Assembly (NCBI GenBank): GCA_963823665.1
Contig: CAWGMQ010000010.1
Coordinates: forward strand, 256,001 to 320,000
DNA: 64,000 nucleotides
Direction: 5' to 3'
Source: an uncultured Planctomycetota bacterium
GTDB lineage: Bacteria; Planctomycetota; Planctomycetia; Isosphaerales; Isosphaeraceae
Below, piece after piece: positions 41,247 through 63,354 of the stretch (position 1 is the stretch's first letter; every line of letters begins with the position of its first letter). A program made the position numbers and the translations under genes. The notes below the pieces were generated by a model. That model saw only the letters and a program-made list of their open reading frames with translations, searched no databases and had not been told where the DNA came from.

Positions 41247-41330
41247 CTCAAGGAAATCCGTGCAACACAAAGTTCCGGTCGGCCGCCGACCGGAACGTTA
41301 CACAGAAACATTCTCACGGGGAGGAACGAA

Positions 41331-42167: not shown

Positions 42168-42235
42168 CCTGGAAGGCAGCGTTTCGAGAGAATGCGCCCG
42201 CGGCGGATTTGCGATGCTTGAAGCGGAGACACGAA

Positions 42236-43225: not shown

Positions 43226-43243
43226 TTCCGCGCGGAGGGCACA

Positions 43244-43987: not shown

Positions 43988-44020
43988 GTCCGGCCGAGCG
44001 AGACCTTGTGAGGGGAGCTA

Positions 44021-45211
44021 ATGGCAGGATTCCAAATGAAGCGACTCGGGATGCTGATGGAGCCCGAGCCGGGAAATGCCCTGGAGGTCGAAGGCGTCTT
44101 GAACCCGGCGGGGATTCGCGGCCCTGACGGTCAATTTTACCTTTTCCCTCGCCTGGTCGCGAAGGGGAATTTCTCGCGCATCGGCATCGCACGCGTGAAG
44201 TTCAATGAGGCCGGCGATCCGATGGGCGTTGAGCGCCTGGGCATCGCGCTCGAGCCCCAAACCGATTACGAGCTGCGGCCTGACGGCAGCGGAGGCTGTG
44301 AGGATCCGCGAATTACTTTTGGCGAAGACATCAAACGCTACGTCATGACTTACACGGCGCTTTCGCCCGAAGGCCCACGGATTGCCCTGGCCCTATCCGA
44401 GGACCTGTTCCACTGGCAGCGTTTGGGGCTGGCGACCTTCCGCCCGTATGAGGGCATCGAGTTCGACGGTGTGGACAACAAGGATGCCAGCATCTTCCCA
44501 GTGGCCATTCGCGATCCTGAAGGGAAGCCGGCAATGGCCATACTCCACAGGCCACTCTTTCCCGGAACTCGTCCTGAGGAAACGGTCTCTCAACCGGCGT
44601 CCCGCGCGGTTGATCCGCAGCGAGAGAGCATCTGGATTTCCTACTGTCCACTGGGCAGGGTTGACGATCTTCCGTATCACCTCAGCCATTTTACTCTGCA
44701 TAACCGGTTGGCCAGCCCGGTGGCGCCCTGGGAGCAGCTCAAGATCGGCGGCGGCACTCCTCCCGTCCTGACCCGGCACGGATGGATGGTTATCTACCAC
44801 GGCGTCCGCACACTGGCGGGCTCGACCACGGCAGCGCGCAAGTTATGTTACTCCGCCGGTGTGATGGTGCTCTCCAAAGAGCTTCCCCGTTTGATTCGTT
44901 ATCGCTCGCCTGAACCGGTGCTGACGCCGGAATTGCCGCAGGAATGCATCGGGACCGTTGCCCACGTCGTGTTTCCGACCGCCATCGACCGGCGCGATGA
45001 TCTCGGCCTGCCCGATCGATTCGACGTTTATTACGGGATGGCCGACAACCGGATCGGAGTGGCGCGTCTCGACGTGCCGAAGACCTTGCCCCCAGGGGGA
45101 CTCGCCGACCCGCCCCGAGCCAATCGCTCAATTCCCATCGATCGTCAATCCAAGACGGAGAGTCGCGAACGCGTCCCGGTCAACACTAAAGGAGGTTCCT
45201 CGCCAACATGA
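44021..45211 (+). CDS. GH130-like glycosidase / mannoside phosphorylase
   Basis: [44 protein letters not shown]. Confidence 0.85.
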
Positions 45212-47252
45212 CTTACTCAGCCACCATCGCTCCGCCGGAACTGGACGAGCTCTGTGTCAATACGCTGCGCTTCCTGGCGGTGGACGCCGTGCAGAAAGCC
45301 AAGTCCGGCCACCCCGGCCTGCCTCTGGGTTCCTCGGCGATGGCTTATGCACTCTGGGATCGCTTTCTCAAGTTCAACCCGTGTGATCCCATCTGGCCCG
45401 ACCGCGATCGCTTTGTTCTCTCGGCCGGCCATGGATGTGCGCTCTTGTACGCGCTGCTTCATGTCACGGGCTTCGATTTGCCGCTGGCGGAGCTCGAGAG
45501 GTTCCGCCAGTGGGGAAGCCGTACCCCAGGCCATCCGGAATATGGAAAGACGGAAGGCGTCGAGGCCACCACCGGTCCCTTGGGGCAAGGCCTGGCCAAC
45601 GCCGTCGGCATGGCCATCGCCGAGGTCGCTCTTGCAGCGCGCTTCAATCGACCTCGTCACCAAATCGTGGACCACTACACTTACGTTTTGGCCAGCGATG
45701 GCGATCTGGAGGAAGGGATATCTTCCGAGGCTGGATCAGAAGCCGGTCACCTGCGGCTTGGCAAGCTCATCGTCCTCTATGCCGACAACCACATCACGAT
45801 CGAGGGCAGCACGAAGCTCGCCTTTACCGAAGACCGTTCGGCCCGTTTCGCCGCGTTCGGCTGGCATGTCCAGCGGGTCGAAGCCAGCAACGACGTTGAC
45901 GCGATCGCTGCCGCGATCGAGGCTGCCAGGGAAGAGACGGGTCGGCCGTCCTTGATTCAGGTTCGCACCCACATCGGCTTCGGCAGCCCCCACAAGCAAG
46001 ACACCGCTGCGGCCCACGGCGAGCCACTCGGCCTGGAAGAAGTTCGTCTGACCAAAGAGGCGCTGGGCTGGCCGGTCGAACCTCCCTTCCATATTCCCGA
46101 GGAGGCCCTGGATCATTTCCGGGAAGCAGTCGCGCGGGGAGCACTGCGCACGCGGAATGGAAGTTACGTCTCGAACTTTATGCGGAGGAACACCCCGACC
46201 TCGCCGCAGAGTTCGAGCGGGTCACGCTTCGGCAACTTTCGAGCGGCTGGGATGCCGACCTCCCGACATTCACCTCAGGCGAAGGCCCAATGGCAACCCG
46301 CATCGCTTCGGGAAAGACGATCGCGGCTCTGGGCTCTCGTCTTCCCGAGTTGATGGGAGGCTCGGCCGATCTTGCTCCCAGCACCCATACGAACATGGAC
46401 GGGGCCGGCAGCTTCGAGCCTGAGACCCGATCGGGACGCAACATGCACTTCGGCATCCGGGAGCATGCCATGGGCGCCATTCTGAACGGTATGGCGCTCC
46501 ACCGCGGCCTCATCCCGTATGGAGCAACCTTCCTGATCTTCAGCGATTATATGCGTCCGCCGATGCGCTTAGCGGCCATGAACGGCCTGCCGGTGATCTA
46601 TGTCTTCACCCACGACAGCATCGCCATGGGAGAGGACGGCCCAACCCATCAGCCTGTCGAACATTTGCTGGGACTCAGATCCATCCCCGGCATGGTTGTC
46701 ATCCGGCCGGCCGATGCGAACGAGACGGTTGCCGCCTGGCGTGTCGCGATCGAGCACAGAGAAGGTCCGGTCGCCCTGGTGCTCACGCGCCAGGGACTCC
46801 CCGTGCTCGAAATTGCCCGATATCCGGGCGTACCCGCTGGAGTGCCCCTGGGTGGCTATGTCCTCGTGGACTCTCCTGCCAGTTGTTTACCCGATATCAT
46901 TCTGATTGCGACCGGTTCCGAAGTGCATCTCGCGCTCGAGAGCCGTGAACGGTTGGCGACCGAGGGCGTCCAGGCCAGGGTGGTGAGTCTGCCGAGCACC
47001 AACCTCTTCTCGATGCAGTCGGAGAAATATCGGAACAAGGTCTTGCCCCCGGGCGTGCCCCTCTTGGCCATCGAGGCCGGTGCGTCCCTCGGCTGGAAAT
47101 CCTATGTCGGTCCCCAGATCGCCGTGATCGGCGTGGACACCTTCGGGGCATCAGCCCCCGGGCCAGTCGTGATGCAGCATTATGGCTTCACAGTCGAGAA
47201 TGTCTGCAACCAAACCCATAACTTGCTCGGCCAAGTCAAGGAGAAACGGTGA
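45208..47252 (+). CDS. tkt: Transketolase, frameshifted near 46140
   Basis: [58 protein letters not shown]. Confidence 0.95.
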
Positions 47253-47698
47253 TGCGCGTGGGAATTGCCGCGGACCATGGAGGGTTTGCTCTCAAGGTAG
47301 AGATGGCTGAGGCCCTTCGGACCGCCGGGCATGAAGTCGTCGATTTCGGCGCACGCATCCTGACTTCGGGGGATGACTACCCCGATTACGTTGTACCCCT
47401 GGCTCTGTCGGTGGCAGAGGAGAAAGTCGAACGTGGCGTGGCCTTTTGCGGGAGTGGCGTGGGAGCGTCCGTCGCCGCCAACAAGGTGCCCGGCGTTCGT
47501 GCCGGTCTGATCCACGACGTTTACTCGGCGCACCAGGGAGTCGAAGACGACAACATGAACATGCTTTGCATGGGTGGACGGGTAATCGGCCCGGCGCTGG
47601 CGTGGGAACTCGTCCAGGCGTTCGTGGCCGCCCGCTTCAGCGGAGCCGAACGCCACCAGCGCCGTTTGGCGAAGGTGGCGGCCCTGGAGAACGACTGA
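47252..47698 (+). CDS. rpiB: Ribose-5-phosphate isomerase B
   Basis: ADHGG, DYPD, CGSGVG, ANKVPGVRA, RHQRR. Confidence 0.93.
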   Translation: MRVGIAADHGGFALKVEMAEALRTAGHEVVDFGARILTSGDDYPDYVVPLALSVAEEKVERGVAFCGSGVGASVAANKVPGVRAGLIHDVYSAHQGVEDDNMNMLCMGGRVIGPALAWELVQAFVAARFSGAERHQRRLAKVAALEND

Positions 47699-48064: not shown

Positions 48065-48439
48065 TCAGCGCTTGGCTTGGTGGCAAGGGGGTGGCTCGGC
48101 CAGCGTCACGACAACAAACGCTTCGCCGGTTACCGTGCTGATGTCGTGGTGCAGACTGACCACCTTGACGTCGGTGACATCCTGGACCATCGCTTGTATG
48201 AGCGGCTTCGCCGTTTCGATCAGTTGGGTCCGTATTTGCTTGAGCAAATCCCTCCCCCTATCGGATGGGAATTTGGCAAGGTGCTGTTCGGCGGGTGTCA
48301 ACATGCCCTGAAGCCGGACGACGATGAAATCCCCGAGCAGGAAGGCGCGAATGTTTTTGGGGCCTCGGCCCCTGTATTCCTGCTCAAAGCGACTCATCAC
48401 GTCGCAGATGGCGGCCTCGATTTCTCCTTGGGTTTTCAT
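48065..48439 (-). CDS. DUF2294 (MpsC-like) protein
   Basis: KTQGEIEAAI, GRGP, LTPAEQHL, GRDLLKQIR, SLHHDISTVTGE; ATGA-overlaps the kinase stop. Confidence 0.92.
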   Translation of the reverse strand: MKTQGEIEAAICDVMSRFEQEYRGRGPKNIRAFLLGDFIVVRLQGMLTPAEQHLAKFPSDRGRDLLKQIRTQLIETAKPLIQAMVQDVTDVKVVSLHHDISTVTGEAFVVVTLAEPPPCHQAKR

Positions 48440-50406
48440 CGTGCCGGCAACTCCGAGACGGTCGCCAAGATTTGCAGCACCTTCCCGAAATCGCCCGGCT
48501 TGACCAGGTGGTGATCGAACCCCGCATCGAACGAACGCTGAAGGTCGCTCACCCCTCCGTACCCGGTCATGGCGACAAGCACAGCATTCTGGAGAGCGGG
48601 CTGCTGACGTATCTGCTTCGCGACCTCAAAGCCATTGAGCCCCGGCAAGCCGATGTCGAGCAGCACCACGTTCGGCCGGTAATCGAGGGCCGCTTCCAGG
48701 ACGGCTGAGCCGTCGTAAGCCATCCTGACATCGTGGCCGGATTCATTCACCAGCAATGCCAGGGTCGTCACGGTATCCACGTTGTCATCCACAACCAGCA
48801 CGCGCAAGGATTGTCCGCTCGATTGGGCCGACTGGGGAGACGGCGATGCCGGCTGCTGCTGGGGAGGTGACACCACCGGCAGACGCACGACGAACTCGCT
48901 GCCTTGCCCCAAAACGCTAGTTGCCGCCACCGTTCCACCGTGCATTTCCACGAGGCGCTGCACCAAAGCCAGTCCGATGCCCAACCCACCTTGCGAGCGG
49001 TCCAGGGACCGTTCCCCCTGGGTGAACAGGTCGAAGATGCGGGGCAGTGTTTCGGGGGCGATGCCGACGCCCGTATCCCGCACACGCAGCACCGCCTCCG
49101 TGCCCTCTTGTTGCAACGTCAACCAAACGTGACCGCCTCGCTCCGTGTACTTGGCGGCATTGGTCAGCAGGTTCACCATCACTTGTTCCAACCGGGCAGC
49201 GTCGGCGTTTAGCCAGATCGCTTGCGCGGGCAGCGACACGGTGAGTTCATGCTTGCGCAGGTCGATCAGCGACCGGACGGTCGCAACCGCGTGTTCCACG
49301 ACGACGCCCACGGCAATCGGTTCTTGATGAAGCTGAATCCTTCCGGTGGTAATGCGAGAGACTTCGAGTAGTTCATCAACGATCTGCGTCAGTTGTCCGA
49401 CCTGACGCTCAATGATGCTGGCGGATTGCTGAAGTATTGGGTTCTCGATACCGTGCAGTCGATTCCGATTGCTGTGCAGGCGCAGGAGAAGAGCGGCATT
49501 GAGGATGGGGGCAAGGGGGTTGCGAAGTTCATGGCTGAGCATCGCCAGGAACTCATCTTTGCGGCGGTCCAGGTCGGCGAGTGCCGCTGCCTGCTCCTGG
49601 GTCAGTCGCTGCAAGCGTCTGCGTTCGGTGATGTCGCGGATGTTGCATTGAACGACCTGGTGTTGGTTCTCCGCATAGACGTTGCTGACGAACTCGACCT
49701 CGACGTTTTGGCCACTTCTGTTCTCGAGGGGCAGGTTTTCATAGCGGACGTAGCCCGTCTTTTGCAGTTCCCGGTAGGCGGCCTGGCTCTCTTCGATATG
49801 GCGGAACAGACCGATCTCCCAGAGTTCCTTGCCCAGGAACTCATCGTGCGAGAAGCCCAGCAAGGTCGTCATGAACGGGTTGGCGTCGATCACCTTACCC
49901 GTGAGTGCGTCGAGGATGAGGATGCCGTCCTTGGCCATCTGGAACAGCCGCCGATACCGGACTTCGGAGTGCGCCATGGCGGCGTCCGTCTGCCGGCGAG
50001 CAGTAACGTCCTCGATGGCTAGAAGGACCAATTCCGGCTCGTTGCTCTCCGGCGGGAACCTGCGGGCGTTAAGCAGCATTGTCCTTTGCCCGAGAGTCGG
50101 GAAGGTGTGTTCAACCTCGACGTCTTCAATGGGATGGCTGTTGGAAAGAACTTGGGGCAGCAACGTCCGCAGTTGGGGGATGTCCCACTGACCGTTGCCC
50201 AGGTCATAGACGAAGCGGCCCTCCGTGTCCTCTTTCGAGGCATGGAAATCCCGGTAGAACGCGCCGTTGGCGGTGCGTACCCGCAGGCTCTTGTCGAGAA
50301 CCACGAACGGCTCTCTCAGGGTCGCGATGATGTTTTCAGCGTACGCAAGGGCGAGCTGCAGTTCTGTTGTGCGCTTGTCAACGTTCGTTTCCATGCCGTT
50401 TCCCAT
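48436..50406 (-). CDS. PAS-PAS hybrid histidine kinase / receiver
   Basis: FLAMLSHELRNPL, NLLTNAAKY, DTGVGI, GLGIGL, VLVVDD, LDIGLP. Confidence 0.93.
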   Translation of the reverse strand: MGNGMETNVDKRTTELQLALAYAENIIATLREPFVVLDKSLRVRTANGAFYRDFHASKEDTEGRFVYDLGNGQWDIPQLRTLLPQVLSNSHPIEDVEVEHTFPTLGQRTMLLNARRFPPESNEPELVLLAIEDVTARRQTDAAMAHSEVRYRRLFQMAKDGILILDALTGKVIDANPFMTTLLGFSHDEFLGKELWEIGLFRHIEESQAAYRELQKTGYVRYENLPLENRSGQNVEVEFVSNVYAENQHQVVQCNIRDITERRRLQRLTQEQAAALADLDRRKDEFLAMLSHELRNPLAPILNAALLLRLHSNRNRLHGIENPILQQSASIIERQVGQLTQIVDELLEVSRITTGRIQLHQEPIAVGVVVEHAVATVRSLIDLRKHELTVSLPAQAIWLNADAARLEQVMVNLLTNAAKYTERGGHVWLTLQQEGTEAVLRVRDTGVGIAPETLPRIFDLFTQGERSLDRSQGGLGIGLALVQRLVEMHGGTVAATSVLGQGSEFVVRLPVVSPPQQQPASPSPQSAQSSGQSLRVLVVDDNVDTVTTLALLVNESGHDVRMAYDGSAVLEAALDYRPNVVLLDIGLPGLNGFEVAKQIRQQPALQNAVLVAMTGYGGVSDLQRSFDAGFDHHLVKPGDFGKVLQILATVSELPAR

Positions 50407-50562: not shown

Positions 50563-51102
50563 TCAAGATGTCGGCGGCTCGTAGACATTGATGTGGTCCG
50601 GCCCTTGGGCGGCTAGCAGGCTGTGCGCGCGGGCCACGACCTCCGGAATGGACCGGACGATTACGAGAAACTTGCCCCCCTTGACGTGATTCTCGTAGTT
50701 GATCGCCCGGTCCTTCGGAACACCCCAGCCTACGAGCGCGCCCGCGAGGGTGCCCAGCGCGGTTCCCGCCAGCGCCCCTTCGATGCCCGCCAAGAGCGCC
50801 GCCGCGAGTGGACCGGCGACCCCGACGAGGCCCAGTCCCGGCAAGACCAGGAATCCCGCTCCAACGCACAGGCCGAACAGCCCCCCGAACAAGGACCCGC
50901 TTTCCGCCCCGGCCGTGACATAGTCGCCGCGGCTGACGAAGCCGCATGGCACCTCGGTCACCTGAGAGCCGCGGCCCACGATCGAGAGATCGTCGAGCGC
51001 GAACCCACCTACGTGGAGCTGCCGCACCGCGCGCTCGGCGGAAGCATGGTCGGGATAAACCGCCACGACGCTGGAAACAATCGCAGTTACCGCCTGGCTC
51101 AT
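50563..51102 (-). CDS. General stress protein, paralog family of 40707..41246
   Basis: SVVAVY, LSIVGR, GGLFG, AGPL, ALVGWGVP, YENHVKGGK. Confidence 0.85.
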   Translation of the reverse strand: MSQAVTAIVSSVVAVYPDHASAERAVRQLHVGGFALDDLSIVGRGSQVTEVPCGFVSRGDYVTAGAESGSLFGGLFGLCVGAGFLVLPGLGLVGVAGPLAAALLAGIEGALAGTALGTLAGALVGWGVPKDRAINYENHVKGGKFLVIVRSIPEVVARAHSLLAAQGPDHINVYEPPTS

Positions 51103-51151: not shown

Positions 51152-52633
51152 TCAGTTGGTTTCAGGGATCTCCTTCGCTTCCGTGACGGGACCGCCTTGA
51201 GTGAGGATCGACAGGTTTCCCAGGATCATCTGCTCCGTGCCGTCGATCGGCGTCCAGGGTTCATCGCCGCTGGACGCCGCGTCGGAGCCTGAGCCGCGGC
51301 GATTGGTGACCTCGATCCACTCGCCGTCGCTGACCCCGGTCTCTACTTCGATCCGTTTCGCATAGCCGTTCTCGCAGATCCAGCAGAACGACCTCTCCCC
51401 GACCTGCAATATGGTCTTGTCGCCGAGGTGCATGAGCGCCGAAACCGGCAGAGCCCACACGCCGGGCCGCTCGATTGTCACTTTGGCGTAAGCGTACATC
51501 CCTGGAAGGAGCTGGCTGCCTGGGTTGGTCAGGTCGATCTCGGCGCGGAGAGTGCGGCTCTCGATGTCGAGCGCCCATGCCGTTCGCGTGACGGTGCCGG
51601 GAATCGGCTGGTCGCGGAACGCCCTGATGAGCACGGTGGCCTTGGAGCCAACGTGGACGTAATTCGCGTAATGCTCCGGGATGTCGACGAAGATGCGGAC
51701 GATGTCCGTGCGGTCGACCACATAGATCGGCGCGGCGGAGCCACCGGGCGAGAGGTAGGGACCGCGGCGATTGGCCGAGGGGTCGCCCGTGCTGGGCAGG
51801 ACGAAATCGAAGGTATTGGCATTACGGGCCACGATGACGCCGTCATAGGGCGCGGGAAGTACGAGGTAATCCACCCAGGCCTGGAGCCGCTTCTCTTCGC
51901 TCTGGGCGAATTTCAGGTCGGCTTCGGCGACACCGACGTCCACGTTGGCCTCGGATAGCGCGGCCCGCTCGGAAAGCAGTTCGGCGCCGGCCTTCAGGAC
52001 CGTTGCGGCCGCCGCGTCCCGGGACGCGACGGACGCCTTCCAACGATTCGTGGTCTGGAGGACATCCTGGGGATTGACCACGCCCCGCTTGAGCTCCTTG
52101 TCCAGCCGCTTGGTCTCCGAGTCCCAGCGCTCGGCCTCGGCCCGATAGCCGGCGTGTTCCGCCCGGGCTTCCTCAAGCCGCGCCTGGGCCGCCTCGACGT
52201 CGGCCTTGGCCACTTTCACGGCCGCCTTGGCCAGCTCGATCTGCTCCAGGTCGAGCGCGACTATCGCCTTCTTCGTAGCGTGGTCCTCAACCAGCTCGGG
52301 CGCGAAGAGGTTGGCGAGCACATCGCCTTTCTTAACCTTGTCGCCGATGTCTACGATCCAATTCAGGATGTAAGCGTTCATTTTCGGATAGACCGACGAG
52401 CGCTCGTAGCTCTGCGTGAAGCTGGGCTGCCCGATGACCCGGACGATATCCCGGACCTGCGGCTGGACCAGCCGCACTGTCGGGGGTCTGCCCACACTCG
52501 TATAGTGGGACTCCGCCTTGTGGTGGCACCCCGACGGCACCAGGACGGCCAGAAGACCGAACGGGAGCTGGAACACCAGGCGGCGGCAGTGCACCAGGCT
52601 ATCCGAACGGGCGGAGAACGTGAATCGGCGCAT
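51152..52633 (-). CDS. RND efflux periplasmic adaptor (MFP) 2
   Basis: Lipobox-like SGC, VDIGDKVKKGD, coiled coil, APYDGVI, SRTLRAEIDL, LLPGMY. Confidence 0.9.
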   Translation of the reverse strand: MRRFTFSARSDSLVHCRRLVFQLPFGLLAVLVPSGCHHKAESHYTSVGRPPTVRLVQPQVRDIVRVIGQPSFTQSYERSSVYPKMNAYILNWIVDIGDKVKKGDVLANLFAPELVEDHATKKAIVALDLEQIELAKAAVKVAKADVEAAQARLEEARAEHAGYRAEAERWDSETKRLDKELKRGVVNPQDVLQTTNRWKASVASRDAAAATVLKAGAELLSERAALSEANVDVGVAEADLKFAQSEEKRLQAWVDYLVLPAPYDGVIVARNANTFDFVLPSTGDPSANRRGPYLSPGGSAAPIYVVDRTDIVRIFVDIPEHYANYVHVGSKATVLIRAFRDQPIPGTVTRTAWALDIESRTLRAEIDLTNPGSQLLPGMYAYAKVTIERPGVWALPVSALMHLGDKTILQVGERSFCWICENGYAKRIEVETGVSDGEWIEVTNRRGSGSDAASSGDEPWTPIDGTEQMILGNLSILTQGGPVTEAKEIPETN

Positions 52634-52646
52634 CACTGGCCCCCCA

Positions 52647-54197
52647 TCAAGGTAGGCGCCTCGCCAGGCGCGAAGTGTCAGGAAGTCGGGGATCGCCCGG
52701 GGACAGTCGTGTGCCTGGATCATGATCCGGCGCGGGCGCCTCGATCGCGATTTTCGTCGCCACCGTCGCGGCGGTGATCTCAACGGCGCCGCCCTCGGTG
52801 AGCGCTGACAAATCGCCGAGGATCACCTGTTCCTTGCCGTCGATCTGCGCCCAGGCAACCGAGTCGCGGGGCGCCTCCCGTGGGACCGGGGGCCGGCGAT
52901 TGCTGATCTCGACCCATTTGTCGTCGCTGACGCCCGTCTCGACTTCAGTCCGCACTGCCTTGCCGTTTTCGTAGAGCCAGCAGAAGGTCTGGTCGCCGTT
53001 ATGAACGAGTGCCGAAAGCGGCAGCGCCTGGACGTCCGGACGCTCAATGATCACCTTGACGTAGGCGTACATCCCGGGCAGGAGCTGGCCTTCAGGGTTG
53101 CTAAGGTCGACCTCGGCGCGGAGCGTTCGGCTCTTCATGTTCAGCGCCCAGGACGTGCGCGTGACGGTGGCCGGCAACTCGGTGTCGCGGAAGTCCCGGG
53201 CAAGCACGCTCGCCTTTGTCCCGATTTTTACGAAGTTGGCGTCTCGTTCCGGGATGTCGAGAAAGATCCGGACGATGTCGAGTCGCTCGACCACGTAGAT
53301 CGGCGCGGCCGTGCCGCTGGGCGAAAGGTTGGGGGAGAGGTAGTAGGCCGTGGGATCGCCTGTAGTGGGTTGGACAAAGTCGAAAGTGTTGGCGTTGCGG
53401 GCTGAGATCACGCCGGTGAAAGGGGCATTTAGCGTGAGATAGTCCACCCAGGCTTTCGCATATCTCTCTTCGCTGTCGGCCACCTTCAGAGTGGCTACCG
53501 CGACCCTGACGGCGACCTGCGTCTTTTCGAGCTTGGCCCGCGCGCTGAGCAATTCCGCCTTCGCCCTCTTGATGGTCGCTTTCGCCTTGTCCAGCGCAGA
53601 GATGCTCGATTTGAGTTGATTGGTCGACTCGAAGAGGATCAAGGGATGGATCACGTGCAGGGCGACCTGTCGAGCCAGCCGATCGACCTCCGTTTGCCAG
53701 CGGTCGACCTCGGCATTGTACTTATTGAGGATCGCCTCGGCCGCTGCAAGGCGCGCCTCGGCCGCGTCGACGTTGGCCCGGGCCACCTCGACCATCTCTT
53801 TGGCCAGCGATATCCGTTCTCGGTCGAGCACGACGGCTGCCTTCTTCGTTCCGAGCTCCTCGACTAGCTCGGGCGCGAACAGGGTGGCAACCACGTCGCT
53901 TTTCTTTACCTTGTCGCCGATGTCGACGATCCACTTCGTTATGTAGGCTGTCGGCTTGGGATAGATCGACGTGCGCTCGTAGCTCTCGATGAAGCTGGGC
54001 TGGCCCACGACCCGCACGATGTTCCGAGACTGCGGCTGGATCAGCCGCACGCTCGGCGGCTTCGTGTTGCCTTCGAATTCGATCTTGTGTTCGCTACGGC
54101 AGCCAGACGCCGCCAGGGTGACAATGAGCCAGGGCACCAGCCGACGGCGGCCGGCGGCCCGATCCGAAATCGCGGGCGAGAGAATCCGGCGCATCAA
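52647..54197 (-). CDS. RND efflux periplasmic adaptor (MFP) 1
   Basis: ASGC, VDIGDKVKK, APFTGVI, SRTLRAEVDL, LLPGMY. Confidence 0.9.
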   Translation of the reverse strand: MMRRILSPAISDRAAGRRRLVPWLIVTLAASGCRSEHKIEFEGNTKPPSVRLIQPQSRNIVRVVGQPSFIESYERTSIYPKPTAYITKWIVDIGDKVKKSDVVATLFAPELVEELGTKKAAVVLDRERISLAKEMVEVARANVDAAEARLAAAEAILNKYNAEVDRWQTEVDRLARQVALHVIHPLILFESTNQLKSSISALDKAKATIKRAKAELLSARAKLEKTQVAVRVAVATLKVADSEERYAKAWVDYLTLNAPFTGVISARNANTFDFVQPTTGDPTAYYLSPNLSPSGTAAPIYVVERLDIVRIFLDIPERDANFVKIGTKASVLARDFRDTELPATVTRTSWALNMKSRTLRAEVDLSNPEGQLLPGMYAYVKVIIERPDVQALPLSALVHNGDQTFCWLYENGKAVRTEVETGVSDDKWVEISNRRPPVPREAPRDSVAWAQIDGKEQVILGDLSALTEGGAVEITAATVATKIAIEAPAPDHDPGTRLSPGDPRLPDTSRLARRLP

Positions 54198-57100
54198 GGA
54201 CCTCCGGGTGAGAAAAGTGCGGGCCCCGGCGAATGTCCGCCATCAGGGGACCGGCGGTGTTCGTCCGTTTGCGGCTGAGACAAGGCCGAATCGGCAGCGT
54301 CTTCATCGTCAGACATGCTCTGGCCGGCGGCGGCAGGCGGGACGAAGTGCTCGCTGTCGGGATCGTCCGGATGAATCGACGACGAGACGGCCTTCTTCTT
54401 GCCGATCACGATCGCAAAGATTGACGGGACGATGAGCAAGGTGGCCACCGTCGACATCACCAGCCCGCCGATCACCGCGCGGCCGAGCGGGGCCTGCATC
54501 TGGCTCCCGCGCTCCAAGGCCAGCGCCATCGGCACCATGCCGGTGGTCATCGCGCAGGCCGTCATCAGGATCGGCCGCATACGCTCGCTGGCACCGAGCA
54601 CCGCCGCCTGCGCTGACCGGTTTCCGGCCTTCCAGTGATCGTTGGTGAAAGCAACGAGCATGACCGAGTTCGAGACCGAGACGCCCAGGCTCATGATCGA
54701 GCCCATGAACGACTCGATGTTCAGAGATGTGTTGGTCACATAGAGGATGATCGCGATGCCGGCCAAGACACCCGGCACGGCGCTGATCGATATCAGGGCC
54801 AGGCGCAGCGACTGGAAATAGGCGGTCAAGAGCACGAGGATCACGAACACAGCGACCCCCAGCCCGATCCCGAGCGACTCGAACATCTCGTCCATCGGCG
54901 GCAGCTGGCCCATGGTCTCGACCCGCACGCCGCGGGGCGGATCACCGACGGCGGCGAGCGCCTGGGCGACCTGCCGTGACGCCCGGCCCATGTCCTCGCC
55001 CTCGACATTCGCCGTCAGCGTCAGGTAGCGCTGTGACATGTCGCGGTCGATCTCGCCGGGCCGCACGCCCCTCTCGACCGTGGCCACGTCACGGATCATC
55101 AGATTGACCAGCGGGTTGATCGATTCCAGCGGCAACGTCTCGATGCCTTCTGGCTTGTCGATCCGCAACGGCGGTATCTGGAGCTGCACCAGGTAGTCGA
55201 AACCCGTCTTCTCGTCGATCCAGTAGTTGAGCGAGGCGAAGCGGGTCGACGCCGTCGCCATGACGATGGCATGGGCCACGTCGGAGACCTTGGCTCCGGA
55301 GAGCCCCGCCTTTTCGCGGTCGATGGTGACCTCGACGGTCGGGTAGTCGAGCGACTGCACGAACTCGACGTCGCGGAGGAACGGGATGCGCCTCATGTTG
55401 GTCGCGATCTTTTCTGCGTGCTGCCGCACCAGCTTCAGATCGGTGCCGACGATCCGGACCGCGATCGGCGTCAGCGAGCCGAAGCTCATGACCTTGGTGA
55501 CCATATCGCCCGGTTCGAAACCGAAGGTCGACAGCGCCGCTTGCTTTTCCGCCTCCTCCTTGGCCAGGCCACCCTGCTCCAGCCGCTTGGCCAGCCATGG
55601 AATCACCCGCTTGGGCAGGACCTTGCGCAGGCGCTCGCGGAACTCGTCGAGCTTGATCCCGCTGTCCTCCGTGAGCGCGATCCGCAACTGGCCGTCGTCG
55701 GGCCCGCGCATGAACAAGACCATGTTGTCGATGCCGAAGTTTGTAGCGACCTGGCCGACGTAGCCCATCGTGATCTTCATATGCTCGGGCGTTGCCTCGC
55801 GCTCGATCTCCTCCAAGCACTTGATCGCCATCTGGCGCGTCAACTCGAAGTTCGAGCCGGGCGGCGGCCGGAACCGCAGCACGAATTCCCCCGAATCGAT
55901 CTGCGGGAACAGCTCGGTGCCAACCTGCAACCCGACCAGCCAGAGGATCAGGCCGCACGCCCCGAGATATCCCGGCACCACAAGCCAGCGCAGGCGAACG
56001 AGCCAGGTCACAACTTTGGTATAAGCATCGAGAAACCGATCGAACAGCCCGCGCTTTTTGCCATGCCCCTTGTTCTTGACCATGTGCACGCACAGGATCG
56101 GTACCAACATGATCGTGAGCAGATACGCCGAGATCATGGCGAACCCAACCGCCAGTGTCAGTGGCATGAACAGCGACCGGAGCGGGTCTTTCATGATCAG
56201 CGCCGGTGTGAATACGGACAGGATGCATAACAGTGCCAGCAGGATCGGCACGGCCGTGGCGTTGGCCGCGCCCAGCACCGCCCTGGCAATCTTGGGCGTT
56301 TGCCCCATCTGCACATGCAAGTTCTCGATGTTTACCGTCGACATATCGACGAGGATGCCGATCGACAGCGCCATGCCGCCCAGCGACATGATGTTGATCG
56401 TGTTGCCCGTCAGCCAGAGTCCGACGAACGACCCCATGAGCGCCAGCGGGATGGTGGCCACGACGACGAGCATGCTCCTCAAGTCGCCGAGGAACAGGAA
56501 GATCATGAGTCCGGTCAAGCCCGCGCCAATCAAACCTTCTGTAGCGACGCTCTCGACGGCCGCCACCACGGCGGGCGACTCGTCGAACTCGAAGTTGATC
56601 GAGACGTCCTTGGGGACCGCGTCGCGGAACATCTTCATCGACTTGTGGACGTCGGCCACGACGGTCAACGTCGATCCAGTGTCTTTCTTGATGACCGGCA
56701 GGTAGACCGCGTTCTTGCCGTTGACGAGCGCGTATCCATACGTGATATCGACATAGTCCTGGATAGTCGCCACGTCGCGGAGGTAGACGTTCCTCTCCAT
56801 CCGGAGCGGAATATCGCCCAGCTTCTGGATGTCGCCCACCGTCGCGTTATTGGCGACCATCGGCATCGAGTCGTGGATGTAGACGTTCCCCGCGGGGATG
56901 ACGGTATTCCCAGTCGCCAGGGCATCAATGACCTGCTGCGGCGTCAGGTTGTAGTCCAGGAGCTTGTGCGGGTCGACGTTGACGACGATCGACCGCATGT
57001 TCGGGCCGAACGGCGAGATCGCCACCGTGCCGGGGACGTTCTTTTGCACCAGCGGCCGGATGACGTTATTGGCCAGGTCCCCCATCGCCCCCAGCGAGGT

Positions 57101-57541
57101 GACGTCGCTCTCGAACACCAGGTAGCCGACCGGGACGGAGCCTGAGTCCATCCGCATGATCATCGGCGGCAAGGTCCCCTTGGGCATCCACGACATCGCC
57201 CGGTCGGACATCGCCACGACCTGGGCCATCGCCTGGCCCATGTCGGTCCCGGGGAAGAACGAGAGCTCGCACAAGGCCACCTGCTGGATGTTCCGCGTAT
57301 TGATATCCTTGATGCCATCGACGTACTGGAAATACAACTCGAGCTCATTGACGATGAAGCCCTCCATCTGGTCGGGGCTCATGCCGATGTAATCGAGGAA
57401 GACGTAAATCTTCGGGACGTTCAGCGAGGGGAAGATATCCACCCGCATCCTGGTGAAGCCCAGAAGGCCACCGCTGATCAGGGCCACGACCAGCATCATG
57501 ATCGTGATCGGGCGCCGCATCGCGAATGAAGTCGGGTTCAT
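54194..57541 (-). CDS. RND efflux permease, copy B
   Basis: VDIFP, TINIMSLGG, GILVDMSTVNIEN, LFMPL, RMRPILMT, PLGRAVIGGL. Confidence 0.93.
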   Translation of the reverse strand: MNPTSFAMRRPITIMMLVVALISGGLLGFTRMRVDIFPSLNVPKIYVFLDYIGMSPDQMEGFIVNELELYFQYVDGIKDINTRNIQQVALCELSFFPGTDMGQAMAQVVAMSDRAMSWMPKGTLPPMIMRMDSGSVPVGYLVFESDVTSLGAMGDLANNVIRPLVQKNVPGTVAISPFGPNMRSIVVNVDPHKLLDYNLTPQQVIDALATGNTVIPAGNVYIHDSMPMVANNATVGDIQKLGDIPLRMERNVYLRDVATIQDYVDITYGYALVNGKNAVYLPVIKKDTGSTLTVVADVHKSMKMFRDAVPKDVSINFEFDESPAVVAAVESVATEGLIGAGLTGLMIFLFLGDLRSMLVVVATIPLALMGSFVGLWLTGNTINIMSLGGMALSIGILVDMSTVNIENLHVQMGQTPKIARAVLGAANATAVPILLALLCILSVFTPALIMKDPLRSLFMPLTLAVGFAMISAYLLTIMLVPILCVHMVKNKGHGKKRGLFDRFLDAYTKVVTWLVRLRWLVVPGYLGACGLILWLVGLQVGTELFPQIDSGEFVLRFRPPPGSNFELTRQMAIKCLEEIEREATPEHMKITMGYVGQVATNFGIDNMVLFMRGPDDGQLRIALTEDSGIKLDEFRERLRKVLPKRVIPWLAKRLEQGGLAKEEAEKQAALSTFGFEPGDMVTKVMSFGSLTPIAVRIVGTDLKLVRQHAEKIATNMRRIPFLRDVEFVQSLDYPTVEVTIDREKAGLSGAKVSDVAHAIVMATASTRFASLNYWIDEKTGFDYLVQLQIPPLRIDKPEGIETLPLESINPLVNLMIRDVATVERGVRPGEIDRDMSQRYLTLTANVEGEDMGRASRQVAQALAAVGDPPRGVRVETMGQLPPMDEMFESLGIGLGVAVFVILVLLTAYFQSLRLALISISAVPGVLAGIAIILYVTNTSLNIESFMGSIMSLGVSVSNSVMLVAFTNDHWKAGNRSAQAAVLGASERMRPILMTACAMTTGMVPMALALERGSQMQAPLGRAVIGGLVMSTVATLLIVPSIFAIVIGKKKAVSSSIHPDDPDSEHFVPPAAAGQSMSDDEDAADSALSQPQTDEHRRSPDGGHSPGPALFSPGGP

Positions 57542-60500
57542 TTCCCATCCCTCCCGTCCTGGCTGTCAAGGTCGGTGTGCGGCTGAAACGAACCTGAATC
57601 GAAAGCGTCCTCTTCGTCGGAGGTGCTCTCGGCGCCGGCGGCCGGCGGGTCGTAGTGGGTACTATCGGGATCGTCCGGATGAATCGACGGCGAGACGGCC
57701 TTCTTCTTGCCGATCACGATCGCAAAGATTGACGGGACAATTAGCAAGGTGGCCACCGTCGACATCACCAACCCGCCGATCACCGCGCGGCCGAGCGGGG
57801 CCTGCATCTGGCTCCCGCGCTCCAAGGCCAGCGCCATCGGCACCATGCCGATGGTCATAGCGCAGGCCGTCATCAAGATCGGCCGCATACGCTCGCTGGC
57901 ACCGATTACGGCCGCCTCCGCTGCCGGCTTTCCGGCCTTCCAATGTTCGTCGATAAACGTCACGAGCATCACCGAGTTCGAGACCGAGACGCCCAGGCTC
58001 ATGATCGAGCCCATGAACGACTCGATATTGAGTGAGGTATTGCTGAAGTAGAGGATGGTCGCGATGCCCGCCAAGACCCCGGGCACCGCTCCAATCGATA
58101 TCAAGGCCAGGCGCGGCGATTGGAAGTAAGCCGTCAAGAGCACGAGGATCACGAACACGGCGACTCCTAGCCCGATCCCGAGCGACTCGAACATCTCGTT
58201 CATCGGCGGGAGCTGGCCCATGGTCTCGACCCGCACGCCGCGGGGCGGATCACCGACGGCGGCGAGCGCCTGGGCGACCTGCCGCGACGCCCGGCCCATG
58301 TCCTCGCCCTCGACATTCGCGGTCAGCGTCAGGTAGCGCTGTGACATGTCGCGGTCGATCTCGCCGGGCCGCACGCCCCTCTCGACCGTGGCCACATCGC
58401 GGATCATCAGGTTGACGAGCGGGTTGATCGATTCCACCGGCAAGGTTTCGATGTCTTCCGGCTTGTCGATCCGCGATGGCGGTATCTGGAGCTGCACCAG
58501 GTAGTCGAAACCCGTCTTCTCGTCAATCCAGTAGTTGAGCGAGGCGAAGCGGGTCGACGCCGTCGCCATGACGATGGCATGGGCCACGTCCGAGACCTTG
58601 GCTCCGGAGAGCCCCGCCTTTTCGCGGTCGATGGTGACCTCGATCGTCGGGTAGTCGAGCGACTGCACGAACTCGACGTCGCGGAGGAACGGGATGTGCC
58701 TCATGTTGGTCGCGATCTTTTCTGCGTGCTGCCGCACCAGCTTCAAATCGGTGCCGACAATCCGGACCGCGATCGGCGTCAGCGAGCCGAAGCTCATGAC
58801 CTTGGTCACCATATCACCCGGCTCGAAACCGAAGGTCGACAACTTCGCTTGCTTTTCCGCCTCCTCCTCGGCCAGGCCACCCTGCTCGAGCCGCTTGGCC
58901 ATCCAGGGAATCACTCGCTTGGGCAGGACCTCGCGCAGCCGCTCGCGGAATTGGTCGAGTTTGATCCCGCTGTCCTCCGTGAGCGCGATCCGCAACTGGC
59001 CGTCGTCGGGCCCGCGCATGAAGAGCACCATGTTGTCGATGCCGAAATTCGGGGCAACCTGGCCGACGTAGCCCATCGTGATCTTGATATGCTCGGGCGT
59101 TGCCTCTCGCTCGATCTCCTCCAAGCACTTGATCGCCATCTGGCGCGTCAACTCGAAATTCGAGCCGGGCGGCGGCCGGAACCGCAGCACGAATTCCCCC
59201 GAATCGATCTGCGGGAACAGCTCGGTGCCGACCTGCAAGCCCAGCACCCAGAGCACCAGGCCGCACGCCGCAAGATAGGCTGGCACGGTCAGCCATCGCA
59301 GCCGGACGAACCAGCCTACCGCCCTTCCGTAGACCTTGAGGGCCCGGTCGAATAGCCCGGGCTTCTTCTCGCCATGGCCCCCGTGGTGCTTCAGCAGGGC
59401 CACGCTCATGATCGGCACGAACATGCTCGAGAGCAGGTACGACGAGATCATTGCAAACCCGACGCCCAAGGTCAGCGGCATGAACAGCGACCGGAGCGGG
59501 TCGGTCATGATGAAGGCCGGGATGAACACCGACAGGATGCAGAGCAGCGCCAGGAGACGCGGCACGGCCGTGGCGTTGCTCGCGCAGCATCGCCATTGCG
59601 ACGTTCGGCGCGTGCTCCATCTGGACGTGCGTGTTCTCGATCGTCACCGTCGCCTCGTCGACCAGGATGCCGATCGACAGCGCCATGCCGCCCAGTGACA
59701 TGATGTTGATCGTGTTGCCCGTCAGCCATAGCCCGACCAACGACCCCATGAGCGCCAGCGGAATGTTGGCCACCACGACGAGCACGCTCCTCAGATCGCC
59801 GAGGAACAACAGGATCATTAGCCCCGTCAATCCCGCGCCAATCATGCCCTCGGTGGCCACGCTCTCAACCGCTGCCACCACGGTTGGCGACTCGTCGAAC
59901 TCGAAGTTGATCGAGACGTTCTTGGGAACGGCGTCGCGGAACAACTGCATCGACTTATGGACGTCGGCCACCACGGTCAACGTCGATCCCGTGTCTTTCT
60001 TGATGATCGGCAGATAGACCGCGTTCTTGCCGTTCACGAGCGCGTATCCATACGTGATATCGACATAGTCCTGGATAGTCGCCACGTCGCGGAGGTAGAC
60101 GTTCCTCTCCATCCGGAGCGGAATATCGCCCAGCTTCTGGATGTCGCCCACCGTCGCGTTGTTGGCGACCATGGGCATCGAGTCGTTGATGTAGACGTTC
60201 CCCGCGGGGATGACGGTGTTCCCTGTCGCCAGGGCATCAATGACTTGCTGCGGCGTCAGGTTGTAGTCGAGGAGCTTGTGCGGGTCGACGTTGACGACGA
60301 TCGACCGCATGTTCGGTCCAAACGGCGAGATCGCCACCGTGCCGGGGACGTTCTTTTGCACCAGCGGCCGGATGACGTTATTGGCCAGGTCCCCCATCGC
60401 CCCCAGCGAGGTGACGTCGCTCTCGAACACCAGGTAGCCGACCGGGACGGAGCCTGAGTCCATCCGCATGATCATCGGCGGCAAGGTCCCCTTGGGCATC

Positions 60501-60853
60501 CACGACATCGCCCGGTCGGACATCGCCACGACCTGGGCCATTGCCTGGCCCATGTCGGTCCCGGGGAAGAACGAGAGCTCGCACAGGGCCACCTGCTGAA
60601 TGTTCCGTGTATTGATATCCTTGATGCCATCAACGTACTGGAAATACAACTCGAGCTCATTGACGATGAAGCCCTCCATCTGGTCGGGGCTCATGCCGAT
60701 GTAATCGAGGAAGACGTAAATCTTCGGGACGTTCAGCGACGGGAAGATATCCACACGCATCCGGTTGAGGCCCAGAAGGCCGCCGCTGATCAGGGCCACG
60801 ACCAGCATCAGGGTCGTGACTGGGCGCCTCATGGCGAAGCCGGTCGGATTCAC
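57538..60853 (-). CDS. RND efflux permease, copy A, frameshifted near 59585
   Basis: Paralog of copy B; GILVDEATVTIEN; split over ORFs 58814..60889 and 57538..59565. Confidence 0.9.
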
Positions 60854-60888
60854 AGTCCACACTCCCTGTCTGCTGCGCGACCGCGGCA

Positions 60889-61926
60889 TTATTCTTCAGG
60901 ACGGCTCGGTCCTTCGTCTGTCGGGTTGCCTGCTTTGCTCCCGCCCCTCGAGGAGGTGGGCGCGGCGGACCCGGCTAGAGGGGTGAGACCGGGGATCCGA
61001 TCGCCATTCGAGTGAGCTTGCGCCGCGTCGAGGCGCTCCCGCAGAGTCTTGAGCTCCTCCTTGAGGGCCTCCAGTTGATTGTCGAACTGTCGGTGTGCCG
61101 CCGGCAGCGCGGCGACTTCAGCCATCGCATGAGTCAGCTCGCTCAGCTTTATCTGCATTTTTCGCAGCGCCGGCGGCGTCGCGTCGGTGGGCAGTGTTAC
61201 ACCGTCCACTCGCTCGCGCAAGTGGTCGACCCGGCGCGACAGGTCCGTGATTAGCTGCTTGAGCATATCCGCGTCTTTGGCCGGCGAGACGCCGGGAATC
61301 GAGTTCTTGGTCGATGCCTGCGCGTTCGATCCCTTGCCCGACTCCTTACTTTCCGCACTGCCGGACTTCTTTTCAGGGCCCGAATCCTTCGTCGAGCCCG
61401 AATCGCTCTTGCCCTGCGACTCTTTCGACTTGGGTCCCGCGGACTTCGGCCCGAAAAAGTACGAGTAGCCCATCGCGCCGATCACACCGCAGGCCAAGGC
61501 GACGCCAGCCGTGATCAGAAGATTCTTCATCATCGAAGGCTGCTGTTGCCGAGATCCGTCTTCGCGAAGGTGTTCTTGATCCTGCACTCGATCTGCGTCA
61601 TGCTGGCGAGCCTGCTGACCGCCTCGATTCTTACTGTGGCCGTTCTGGTCCTGAGGGCGGTCTTGAGAATTGCCCTGTTCCTTGTGAGCGAAGACCGTCC
61701 GGACTCCCGTGGCGCCGAGCAGGTCCGACTCGCTCACCTGGGTCGTCTCGACGCTGATGGTGGCGTCCGGGTTAAGCTTCCGGTCTGACGGGTGCTCGAC
61801 CACCTTGTCAATAACCGGATCAGCGGTGTCGATGGTGATCGGCGCTGGGTCCTCGTCAGGAAGCTTGCCCGCCTGTGAGTGCTCGTCAACCCGGTGGGAT
61901 TCGTCGGTCGAATTGGATTTGTCCAT
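60889..61926 (-). CDS. Hypothetical single-TM protein with coiled coil; first gene after leader B
   Basis: GAGGGA RBS before MDKSNS; TM LLITAGVALACGVIGAMGYSYF; heptad C-terminal region. Confidence 0.7.
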   Translation of the reverse strand: MDKSNSTDESHRVDEHSQAGKLPDEDPAPITIDTADPVIDKVVEHPSDRKLNPDATISVETTQVSESDLLGATGVRTVFAHKEQGNSQDRPQDQNGHSKNRGGQQARQHDADRVQDQEHLREDGSRQQQPSMMKNLLITAGVALACGVIGAMGYSYFFGPKSAGPKSKESQGKSDSGSTKDSGPEKKSGSAESKESGKGSNAQASTKNSIPGVSPAKDADMLKQLITDLSRRVDHLRERVDGVTLPTDATPPALRKMQIKLSELTHAMAEVAALPAAHRQFDNQLEALKEELKTLRERLDAAQAHSNGDRIPGLTPLAGSAAPTSSRGGSKAGNPTDEGPSRPEE

Positions 61927-61970
61927 CGGTTCGTCCCTCGTGAGTGTCACCACCCGTCGCCGACGCAAAC

Positions 61971-62087
61971 AAAAAACCGGCGTGGCGGAACACCCTGAGG
62001 TATTCGACCACGCCGGCTTACTCGTCAACGGGCCCCCCGGCAAAGCCGGAGTGCCCTTTATCTAGTCGTCCGACGAAATCAGCTCAT
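61971..62087 (-). ncRNA. Candidate cis-regulatory leader RNA (antiterminator/terminator), copy B
   Basis: Homologous to 40445-40566; stem CCGGCGTGG../..CCACGCCGG followed by T6GT3; ends 45 nt before the start codon at 61926. Confidence 0.75.
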
Positions 62088-62157
62088 GTCTTGGTGGGAT
62101 CTGCCTGCTCGCTCGCGCAGGCTATCCATTCGGTCTCCATTGTCCTATTTGGAGCGT

Positions 62158-62183
62158 AAATAGCAAGGCCATTGTTGCTATTT
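62158..62183. promoter_or_regulatory. Perfect inverted repeat AAATAGCAA-N8-TTGCTATTT overlapping a candidate minus-strand -35 box
   Basis: Seen directly; on the minus strand TTGCTA-16 bp-GACAAT precedes leader B. Confidence 0.5.
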
Positions 62184-62598: not shown

Positions 62599-63354
62599 AT
62601 GATTCGGTTCCTCAGATTCTCCCCGAGAGCGATCAAAGCGACAGCGCTGGCGATGACGGTCCTGGCGGCCTCGGCCTCCTCGACATTCGCTCATGGTGGA
62701 GGCGGTGGCGGTCACGGCGGTGGCAGTCACGGCGGTGGCGGCCGCATGGGCGGCTACGGCGGTGGTTATCGAGGCGGCTACGGTGGAGGCGGCTACGGCG
62801 GTGGTTATCGAGGCGGTTACAACGGCTATGGATACGGCCTCTTCGGTCTCGGGATGGGTGGATACGGCTACGGCGGCTATGGCAGCGGGTATGGCTACGG
62901 CGGCTATGGCAGCGGGTATGGCTACGGCGGCTATGGCAACGGGTATGGCTACGGCGGCTACGGCAATGGATATGGCCTCTTAGGCGTCGGCCTGGGTGGA
63001 TACGGCTACGGCGGCTATGGCAACGGGTACGGCTACGGTGGCTACGGCAATGGATACGTCGGGAACAATTACTATTCGAGTGGCTACAACTCGGCTCCGG
63101 TCGTCAACCAGGCTTCCTCGGCCCCGTACTTGACCACTCAGACCTACGAGCCGGGCGACGGCTACCGTTACCCGCTTTATTACAACCCGGCCACCGGGGG
63201 TCACATCTATTACCCTTCGGCTCCGGTCGTCAACCAGGCTTCCTCGGCCCCGTACTTGACCACTCAGACCTACGAGCCGGGCGATGGCTACCGTTACCCG
63301 CTCTACTACAACGCGGCCACCTCGCGTTACATCTATTACACGGTCGCCCGCTGA
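62599..63354 (+). CDS. Secreted Gly/Tyr-rich low-complexity protein with a duplicated C-terminal module
   Basis: Signal peptide ending STFA; GYGYGGYG(S/N) repeats; 42-aa module twice. Confidence 0.75.
   Translation: MIRFLRFSPRAIKATALAMTVLAASASSTFAHGGGGGGHGGGSHGGGGRMGGYGGGYRGGYGGGGYGGGYRGGYNGYGYGLFGLGMGGYGYGGYGSGYGYGGYGSGYGYGGYGNGYGYGGYGNGYGLLGVGLGGYGYGGYGNGYGYGGYGNGYVGNNYYSSGYNSAPVVNQASSAPYLTTQTYEPGDGYRYPLYYNPATGGHIYYPSAPVVNQASSAPYLTTQTYEPGDGYRYPLYYNAATSRYIYYTVAR
62860..63054 (+). repeat. 27-nt tandem repeats encoding GYGYGGYG(S/N) (4 + 2 copies)
   Basis: GG(G/A)TA(T/C)GGCTACGG(C/T)GGCTA(T/C)GGCA(G/A)(C/T) units. Confidence 0.85.
63091..63339 (+). repeat. 126-nt tandem duplication (63091 and 63217)
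   Basis: TCGGCTCCGGTCGTCAACCAGGCTTCC... occurs twice, nearly identical. Confidence 0.9.

Follow-up and report, generated by a model that had tools for sequence, protein, structure and literature searches.

Two similar sequences lie ahead of gene runs in the 64,000-nucleotide stretch of planctomycete DNA analyzed here (the window). This raises the question of whether they act as an RNA leader and, if so, which partner would operate it.

The leader element and its copies

The leader on the minus strand (61967-62075; copy 2) is a second copy of a plus-strand element at 40457-40566 (copy 1). A shared 19-mer has only two sense matches in the window, which are the two leaders (chance expectation, 0.00); its one further occurrence corresponds to the terminator arm of copy 1. 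Over 78 aligned nucleotides, the copies differ at 18 positions (11 unpaired and 7 in stems), and no pair is broken. Five of the stem changes are one-sided G-C/G-U exchanges, and one pair changed on both sides, from G-C to A-U at 62059/62027. A preliminary description of this DNA had claimed that many differences between the copies keep the pairing. All 7 stem differences do so, though only one pair changed two-sidedly. Every string that the description quoted is present in the sequence, and both copies are at the places given.

Since two copies are thin evidence, further leaders were gathered. A covariance model (R1) was built from 22 copies of the 16.5-Mb host genome, first collected by pattern search. 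R1 listed 26 leader copies in that genome and scored copy 2, part of its own training set, at 100 bits. Run on 150 genomes of the phylum, with 31 candidates scored per genome, R1 gave at least 5 matches; one of them, in genome G144, lacked a terminator and was rejected as false. A pattern scan of 6 of the 64 parts of GTDB yielded 132 loci (about 1,400 stretches are estimated in total), with titles naming Planctomycetota for 128 and a delta proteobacterium for two. Two pattern loci without a terminator (L142 and L150) were taken as chance matches. No Rfam 15 covariance model reached its gathering threshold anywhere in the window or in 10 distant loci, and the best subthreshold scores (17.9 and 24.1 bits) fell far under the cutoffs. 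The leader RNA is a real, conserved and uncatalogued attenuator-type element.

Within about 1 kb of the window end, another leader lies at G000:C10:320472-320549 on the minus strand (L054), with a divergent leader at 320933-321010. Behind the L054 leader come the remains of an mpsC-B start (about 20 codons) and an SPFH gene that ends at window position 63409.

Fold and covariation of the hairpin

The predicted antiterminator hairpin spans 62011 to 62075 on the minus strand in copy 2 (fold z, -4.1; also recovered by RNAalifold, covariation, R1 and R2, a second model described below) and 40457 to 40521 on the plus strand in copy 1 (fold z, -2.2; R1 and R2). From its base, the copy 2 hairpin comprises stem P1 (62075-62070/62016-62011), a 3x3 loop (ACG/AAG), P2 (ACU/AGU), a second loop, P3 (UAA/UUG), an A.G mismatch, P4 (GGGC/GCCC), a 2x2 loop and P5. 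Conservation points to the basal, purine-rich 3x3 loop with its flanking pairs (62017 to 62069, minus strand; loop strands 62069-62067 facing 62019-62017) as the predicted binding site. This is the most conserved part of the RNA: A-N-G faces A-A-G between GG/CC and AC/GU pairs, and in 197 leaders all columns of this part except the middle 5′ base are 95 to 100% conserved, partly by ascertainment. The strings GG-NAG-A and U-AAG-CC are also retained in distant loci that were selected by protein. The purine-rich loops are a plausible candidate binding site.

Covariation was assessed in 197 unique leaders (effective number, 153), which were aligned without gaps and anchored on both motifs, with no structure fitting. 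Nine of the ten strongest column pairs came from P4 and P5 (z, 5.6 to 19.7, values that ignore relatedness), and the tenth was a noncanonical A.G/G.A swap in the 2x2 loop (z, 11.7). Little variation is seen in P1 and P2, in part an effect of the selection of most leaders on these very stems. On the sense strand, the hairpin stems contain 398 G-U against 36 A-C oppositions and the terminator base 88 against 25, as expected for RNA made from that strand. The upper-stem covariation and the G-U excess support the earlier proposal that selection acts on RNA structure and not on a DNA repeat. A larger alignment had been suggested as a check, and the larger sets of leaders decided the question of preserved pairing in favor of the preliminary description.

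Several details of the preliminary fold required revision. Its middle stem paired GAU with GUU in one copy and GAC with GUC in the other, a register in which all changes are one-sided; the two-sided change at 62059/62027 is present only in the alternative, YRA/UYR. Among the 22 host genome copies, the two registers pair about equally well (61/66 cells for YRA/UYR versus 62/66 for GAY/GUY), with 7 two-sided changes versus 1. In 46 distinct distant leaders, YRA/UYR is paired in 122 of 137 cells (89%) and shows 30 two-sided changes, against 69 of 137 paired cells (50%) for GAY/GUY. Judged by these counts, the middle 3-bp helix is probably YRA/UYR and the GAY/GUY register wrong. The 3-bp ACU/AGU helix above the basal loop had been absent from the list of stems. 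From the proposed six-pair basal stem, a 4-bp core (UCGG/CCGR) survives, and the outer three positions pair in 64, 73 and 22% of the 197 leaders; the basal pairs that hold generally number 4 in planctomycetes and 3 in the distant set. The supposedly invariant AAGGGCA is so in the two window copies, but its GGG is G in only 78, 61 and 90% of the 197 leaders and shows covariation with the strand that it faces. At the terminator top, described as varying freely, the sequence does differ but the pairing is kept in both copies.

Competition with the terminator and a putative promoter

An intrinsic terminator hairpin with a U-tract is predicted at 61967 to 62019 on the minus strand in copy 2 (fold z, -7.4), and a terminator at 40513 to 40566 on the plus strand in copy 1 (fold z, -9.8). 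One strand is shared: AAGCCGGCG forms the 5′ side of the terminator and, in the alternative fold, the 3′ side of both P1 and the basal loop, which makes the two structures mutually exclusive. In the full leader, the terminator beats the P1 fold by 7.6 kcal/mol in copy 2 and by 14.1 kcal/mol in copy 1. A strict test found the terminator in 192 of 197 leaders. When the hairpin was folded alone, P1 formed in 196/197 leaders; in the complete leader, the terminator fold prevailed in 193/197. The antiterminator hairpin remains the predicted structure up to about 45 nt beyond the start of its 3′ strand. We infer that termination at the leader is regulated.

Upstream of copy 2, a -35 hexamer (TTGCTA, 62161 to 62166, minus strand) is predicted from the sequence, and a -10 hexamer (GACAAT, 62139 to 62144, minus strand) may follow after a 16-nt spacer. 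The putative promoter of copy 1 (TTGCTT, 18 nt, TACCAT) lies at 40361 to 40390 on the plus strand. TTGCT is invariant across 5 aligned cassettes, and the pattern TTG-N-TANNNT/GANNNT precedes 107 of 194 leaders, compared with 24 in shuffled sequence; the sigma-70-like site sits about 60 nt upstream of the leader. A generic promoter scanner made no call at the -35 hexamer of copy 2. A co-oriented gene starts within 300 nt of the leader in 113 of 136 cases. Convergent genes numbered 1 of 136, but under stricter thresholds, so that this figure is not a matched control. Read depth on metatranscriptome contigs is highest at the leader, a place where reads from many paralogous loci accumulate, and the contigs show no ends.

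Genes behind the two window copies

The ribosome binding site and first seven codons behind copy 2 (61906 to 61940, minus strand) align near-identically with the start of a type B mpsC gene. Promoter, leader, ribosome site and these codons match a leader-mpsC-B cassette in genome G162 and three paralogous cassettes, so copy 2 arose through copying of such a cassette. The first gene itself (60889 to 61926, minus strand) encodes 345 amino acids, has no Pfam family and is present once in the genome. It is followed on the minus strand by an AcrB-family transporter in two frames (57538 to 60889, break near 59590), a second, intact one (54194 to 57541), two HlyD/CusB-type membrane fusion proteins (51152 to 54197), a YflT-domain (heat/general stress) protein (50563 to 51102) and a PAS-PAS-HisKA-HATPase-receiver hybrid kinase (48436 to 50406) with a stop codon that overlaps the next start by 4 nt. 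That start belongs to a type A MpsC/DUF2294 gene (48065 to 48439, minus strand; PF10057 E value, 1e-35), the candidate trans-acting factor and the final gene of the co-oriented run led by copy 2. Copy 1 precedes plus-strand genes for YflT, PPK2, mannose-phosphate isomerase, HAD/PMM, GH130, transketolase (two frames) and RpiB (40707 to 47698).

The AcrB-type genes at 54194-60889 are near-identical tandem duplicates. The frame breaks in the first of them (59540-59620) and in the transketolase gene (46290-46353) are either assembly indels or real. Divergent from copy 2, a 251-residue, Gly/Tyr-rich, secreted-looking protein without a Pfam family is encoded at 62599-63354 (plus strand); it has GYG repeats and a duplicated C-terminal motif. 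At another locus of the host genome (L032:18276-20000; G000:C10:2453276 onward), a second type A mpsC gene adjoins a frame resembling the PAS hybrid kinase of the window, a further instance of the kinase link in this genome.

Co-occurrence of the leader with mpsC

Each of the 7 PF10057 matches in the host genome has a leader no farther than 8.4 kb away, a distance that covers 1.7% of the genome, and 18 of the 26 leaders lie within 25 kb of an mpsC match. Among 40 relatives, both RNA and MpsC were found in 13, the RNA only in 1 (a weak match, E value 6e-5), MpsC only in 2 and neither in 24; these genomes are nonindependent kin, several are incomplete, and four reverse-strand shadows were removed from the copy numbers. 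The family-level subset, likewise of nonindependent kin, gave 11/1/1/11 in the same order. Leader and mpsC copy numbers are correlated (rho, 0.74; n = 13).

More than half of the mpsC matches (30/53) lie within 1 kb of a leader, and 11/53 are on contigs without one. Near leaders, the layout is fixed: 12 high-scoring mpsC genes are divergent and upstream, mostly of type A, and 12 low-scoring ones are directly downstream, mostly of type B. At 14 additional MpsC-centered loci, 12 of them from two genomes chosen by their leaders, we found a strong leader in 9 cases, a weak one in 1 and none in 4. A PF10057 search gave no match in two leader-bearing assemblies, G188 (1.5 Mb) and G189; in the latter, a truncated mpsC start stands beside the leader. 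At L149:2780-2860, a truncated type A mpsC start is divergent from a leader; the assembly has no full PF10057 match. Some of this co-occurrence can be accounted for by gene islands on which the RNA and mpsC spread together.

Distant loci chosen by protein alone

In Acetoanaerobium noterae, the leader core was found right after the stop codon of mpsC. We collected 79 metagenome loci by alignment to clostridial-type MpsC, with no RNA criterion, of which 63 were distinct and long enough. Of these 63 loci, 49 have the core plus a terminator in the roughly 100 nt that follow the mpsC stop codon, versus 1 of 1,150 control windows, counted with a core pattern that was relaxed after an initial result had been seen; the core test failed in the other 14. 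This form is shorter than the planctomycete hairpin. The shared core comprises about 14 nt, and the upper part can shrink to a few pairs. In 46 distant leaders, the outer P1 pair, C-G in planctomycetes, is mostly U-A (32 leaders; C-G in 5), and P2 changes from C-G to U-A in 3. Altogether, 82 cells are changed on both sides, compared with 22.6 in shuffles.

A second covariance model (R2) was built from 48 protein-selected distant loci only. Over the 64 kb of the window, it ranked copy 1 first (21.8 bits; E value, 0.0004) and copy 2 second (19.2 bits; E value, 0.0023), and the next-best match had an E value of 0.25. Among 31 of 42 downstream genes scanned in the distant set, PurK was found 9 times, MFS 7, PEP carboxylase 5, DUF4914 4 and PurE once; the rest comprised two other DUFs and 3 genes without a family. 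The downstream genes vary by lineage, and MpsC is the constant.

Four mpsC loci of Bacillota from a plasmid collection were searched with R2, and three of them (Anoxybacillus, Staphylococcus pettenkoferi and Bacillus badius) gave no match. Between a DUF2294 gene and a sodium-dependent bicarbonate permease gene of Anoxybacillus (L253:8380-8470), a terminator-bearing hairpin with a variant core was seen by eye; neither R1 nor R2 recovers it, and it was not counted. At L255:3470-3490, a hairpin and U-run that match neither model directly precede the ribosome site of a staphylococcal ndhF/mpsA gene.

The MpsC protein

Type A MpsC has 124 residues, with 16 K+R versus 15 D+E, and is therefore not strongly basic. 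By profile, it is 38% identical to the clostridial type and 26% identical to type B. R25, R42, K67 and R70 do not vary among 56 planctomycete-type and 26 clostridial-type sequences, the two RNA-adjacent types, and are replaced mostly by H, T, Q and H in type B; because the 42 clostridial sequences from relative genomes are kin to two seeds, this comparison covers two subfamilies. A receiver domain (PF00072) occurs in 36 of 89 longer homologs, although read-through artifacts may account for a few of the closest fusions, and one protein carries tandem MpsC-MpsC domains. The proteins P0290 and P0310 contain receiver and MpsC domains only.

A structure model of MpsC (pLDDT, 88.6) has the order helix-strand-strand-helix-helix-strand-strand. 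Searches with it returned no significant match to solved structures (best Foldseek E value, 0.008; best Z, 7.0), the PDB held no sequence relative, and an atlas search gave no match beyond PF10057. This lack of a match is no evidence of a new fold. RbfA (Z, 5.8) and 3gku (Z, 5.5) lay inside the background. The type II KH RNA-binding fold is characterized by a GxxG loop; between the two middle helices of MpsC, GxxG is absent, and no RNA-binding domain is annotated in the protein.

The MpsC protein of the S. aureus mpsABC locus and B. subtilis YbcI belong to the same Pfam family, PF10057 (DUF2294), as the MpsC of the window. In the part of PMC6689103 available, S. aureus MpsC is described as dispensable for the bicarbonate pump and without phenotype: its deletion grew normally in air, whereas mpsAB was needed. 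MpsC is thus no essential activator there. Unlike the window, the staphylococcal mpsC locus examined has no match to this leader RNA.

Target genes across planctomycete leaders

A simple rule for the first gene behind each leader gave 123 candidates, of which 76 were hand-picked and scanned. Among these, MpsC was found 15 times, CsbD 5 times (one under the cutoff), DUF3309 5 times, sigma factors 3 times, and DUF1328, BON and transglycosylase-associated families twice each. YflT, ferritin-like, KaiC, CsrA and others were single cases, and 17 genes had no family. We refer to these targets as a general-stress set, by likeness to the SigB and EcfG regulons. No carboxylase or bicarbonate transporter was found among the 76 planctomycete targets scanned or in another scan of 30 proteins. 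Leaders stand ahead of a csrA-family gene (L195:666-896), a kaiC-family gene (L194:908-2374) and a sigma factor gene (L192:854-1876), so the regulon would take in other regulators.

Proposed mechanism and alternative explanations

The sequences themselves show the RNA family, its fold, the overlap with the terminator, the gene context and the tie to mpsC; how the element works is inferred from these. The most likely reading, to which we assign a probability of about 0.6, is that the leader is an attenuator operated by MpsC, with read-through upon binding. By default, transcription would stop at the stronger intrinsic terminator. Type A MpsC/DUF2294 would bind the purine-rich basal loop and keep the short basal stem shut; the closed stem would block the terminator, and read-through would turn the genes on. 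In planctomycetes, the many copies would form a postinitiation regulon of general-stress-type genes, and the type B paralog directly behind a leader, with its basic residues lost, might speculatively provide negative feedback. In clostridia-like bacteria, a single mpsC gene is followed by a short leader and then by PurK, PurE or PEP carboxylase genes. The receiver fusions and the kinase gene overlapping mpsC may point to a phosphorylation signal in some lineages. A broader proposal, which we hold only tentatively and would sooner doubt than accept, is that MpsC/DUF2294 constitutes an unrecognized class of RNA-binding antiterminators and a response regulator output domain that reads the near-symmetric A-N-G/A-A-G loop, controlling CO2/bicarbonate genes in clostridia-like bacteria and, by termination, a general stress regulon in planctomycetes, with a leader-controlled paralog that lacks the basic residues as a brake.

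The hairpin might instead sense a small ligand (e.g., an ion, CO2/bicarbonate or a signaling nucleotide) that turns the genes on, with mpsC as a coregulated passenger. The conserved purine-rich loops, the A.G/G.A covariation in the 2x2 loop and the overlap with the terminator would suit such a riboswitch, and PurK, PEP carboxylase and PurE among the distant downstream genes suggest an inorganic-carbon signal. However, the shared core is only about 14 nt, with an upper part that can shrink to a few pairs; the planctomycete targets scanned include no carboxylase or bicarbonate transporter; a type A mpsC gene is usually located upstream of the leader or divergent from it, beyond its control; and the receiver fusions identify MpsC as a regulatory output. 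We therefore regard a riboswitch as unlikely, and the evidence favors a protein, MpsC, over a small ligand as the partner of the hairpin. Less probable still is that MpsC is the partner in a negative or indirect way, promoting termination or modulating another factor, while the hairpin persists kinetically without it. The predicted persistence of the hairpin to about 45 nt beyond the start of its 3′ strand is in line with this idea. So are, in the available part of PMC6689103, the normal growth of the S. aureus mpsC deletion and an mpsA level that is lower at 5% CO2, which fits a repressor, and the suggestion in the available part of PMC2790875 of a terminator-bearing leader for S. aureus ndhF. 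Against it, the staphylococcal locus tested has no match to this RNA. Moreover, the terminator is already favored at equilibrium and the conserved bases are structured only in the antiterminator fold, which implies that a factor is needed to open expression, not to close it.

We consider it very improbable that the terminated short transcripts are themselves the product, in the form of multicopy small RNAs by which MpsC or another protein would be titrated. CsrB-type RNAs titrate a protein in this manner, and each of the 26 copies combines a promoter-like site about 60 nt upstream with a strong terminator, one leader standing ahead of a csrA-family gene. Yet a co-oriented gene follows within 300 nt in 113/136 copies, the distant element begins a few nucleotides after the mpsC stop codon with no space for its own promoter, and each RNA offers a single binding site. 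Clustered copies, spread by duplication and accompanied by relics of the mpsC-B start, might suggest a copied promoter-terminator cassette or DNA repeat without a regulated RNA fold. The covariation, the strand-specific G-U excess (398 to 36) and the conservation of the core in distant bacteria make this scarcely credible.

If operation by MpsC is true, a widespread orphan family with the misleading name of a transporter subunit would gain a function, and a new class of RNA-binding regulators would stand alongside CAT and ANTAR. Operation by MpsC would also provide a route by which planctomycetes might switch a CsbD/YflT/BON-type stress regulon and a testable link of carboxylase genes to inorganic carbon in bacteria. 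The small parts (124 residues and about 110 nt) open the claim to direct in vitro testing.

Comparison with known systems

Among multicopy hairpins of planctomycetes, we compared the leader with Rhodopirellula-1, a Weinberg 2010 motif that is not in Rfam. Like the leader, Rhodopirellula-1 is a candidate cis-regulatory element, but in the available part of PMC2864571, its rows, compared by eye, show AACNA..GAU..GAAC/GUUAUC..CGUU and lack GGAYGAC/GUAAGCC. On this different consensus, identity was rejected. Available literature gave no description of the leader RNA or of an RNA role for MpsC, although the supplements of PMC5737381 and PMC11109978 and part of PMC2864571 may list the motif.

ANTAR proteins (EutV, AmiR and NasT) are a precedent in which a small domain, alone or fused to a receiver, controls multilocus regulons by antitermination (PMC3369931, as far as available). 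Similarly, MpsC is found alone or receiver fused (36/89 longer homologs). The ANTAR domain is absent from MpsC, however (P0290 and P0310 have receiver and MpsC domains only), and an ANTAR site consists of a pair of small hairpins whose terminal loops are conserved, whereas the leader forms a single long hairpin in which the internal loops are conserved and the terminal loop varies.

A close likeness is to the RAT elements read by BglG, SacY and LicT, in which an antiterminator overlaps a stronger and mutually exclusive terminator, as it does here. For licT, glcT and hutP, the regulator gene adjoins its target, comparable to mpsC beside the leader in the distant loci. The logic of the LicT/RAT antiterminator hairpin is established, and the available part of PMC5393181 gives an 8-nt overlap in licS that involves the basal stem and first loop; the overlap here is about 9 nt. 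The RAT hairpin has two internal loops; internal loops are also present here, the basal one being the most conserved. In contrast to RAT, the leader has a different loop sequence, a 65-nt hairpin, up to 26 copies per genome and stress or carboxylase genes rather than sugar operons as targets, and the co-occurring protein matches PF10057 only, not the CAT and PRD domains of the RAT partner. Membership in both the RAT/LicT and the ANTAR systems fails; the RNA logic is RAT-like, and the RNA and protein are unrelated.
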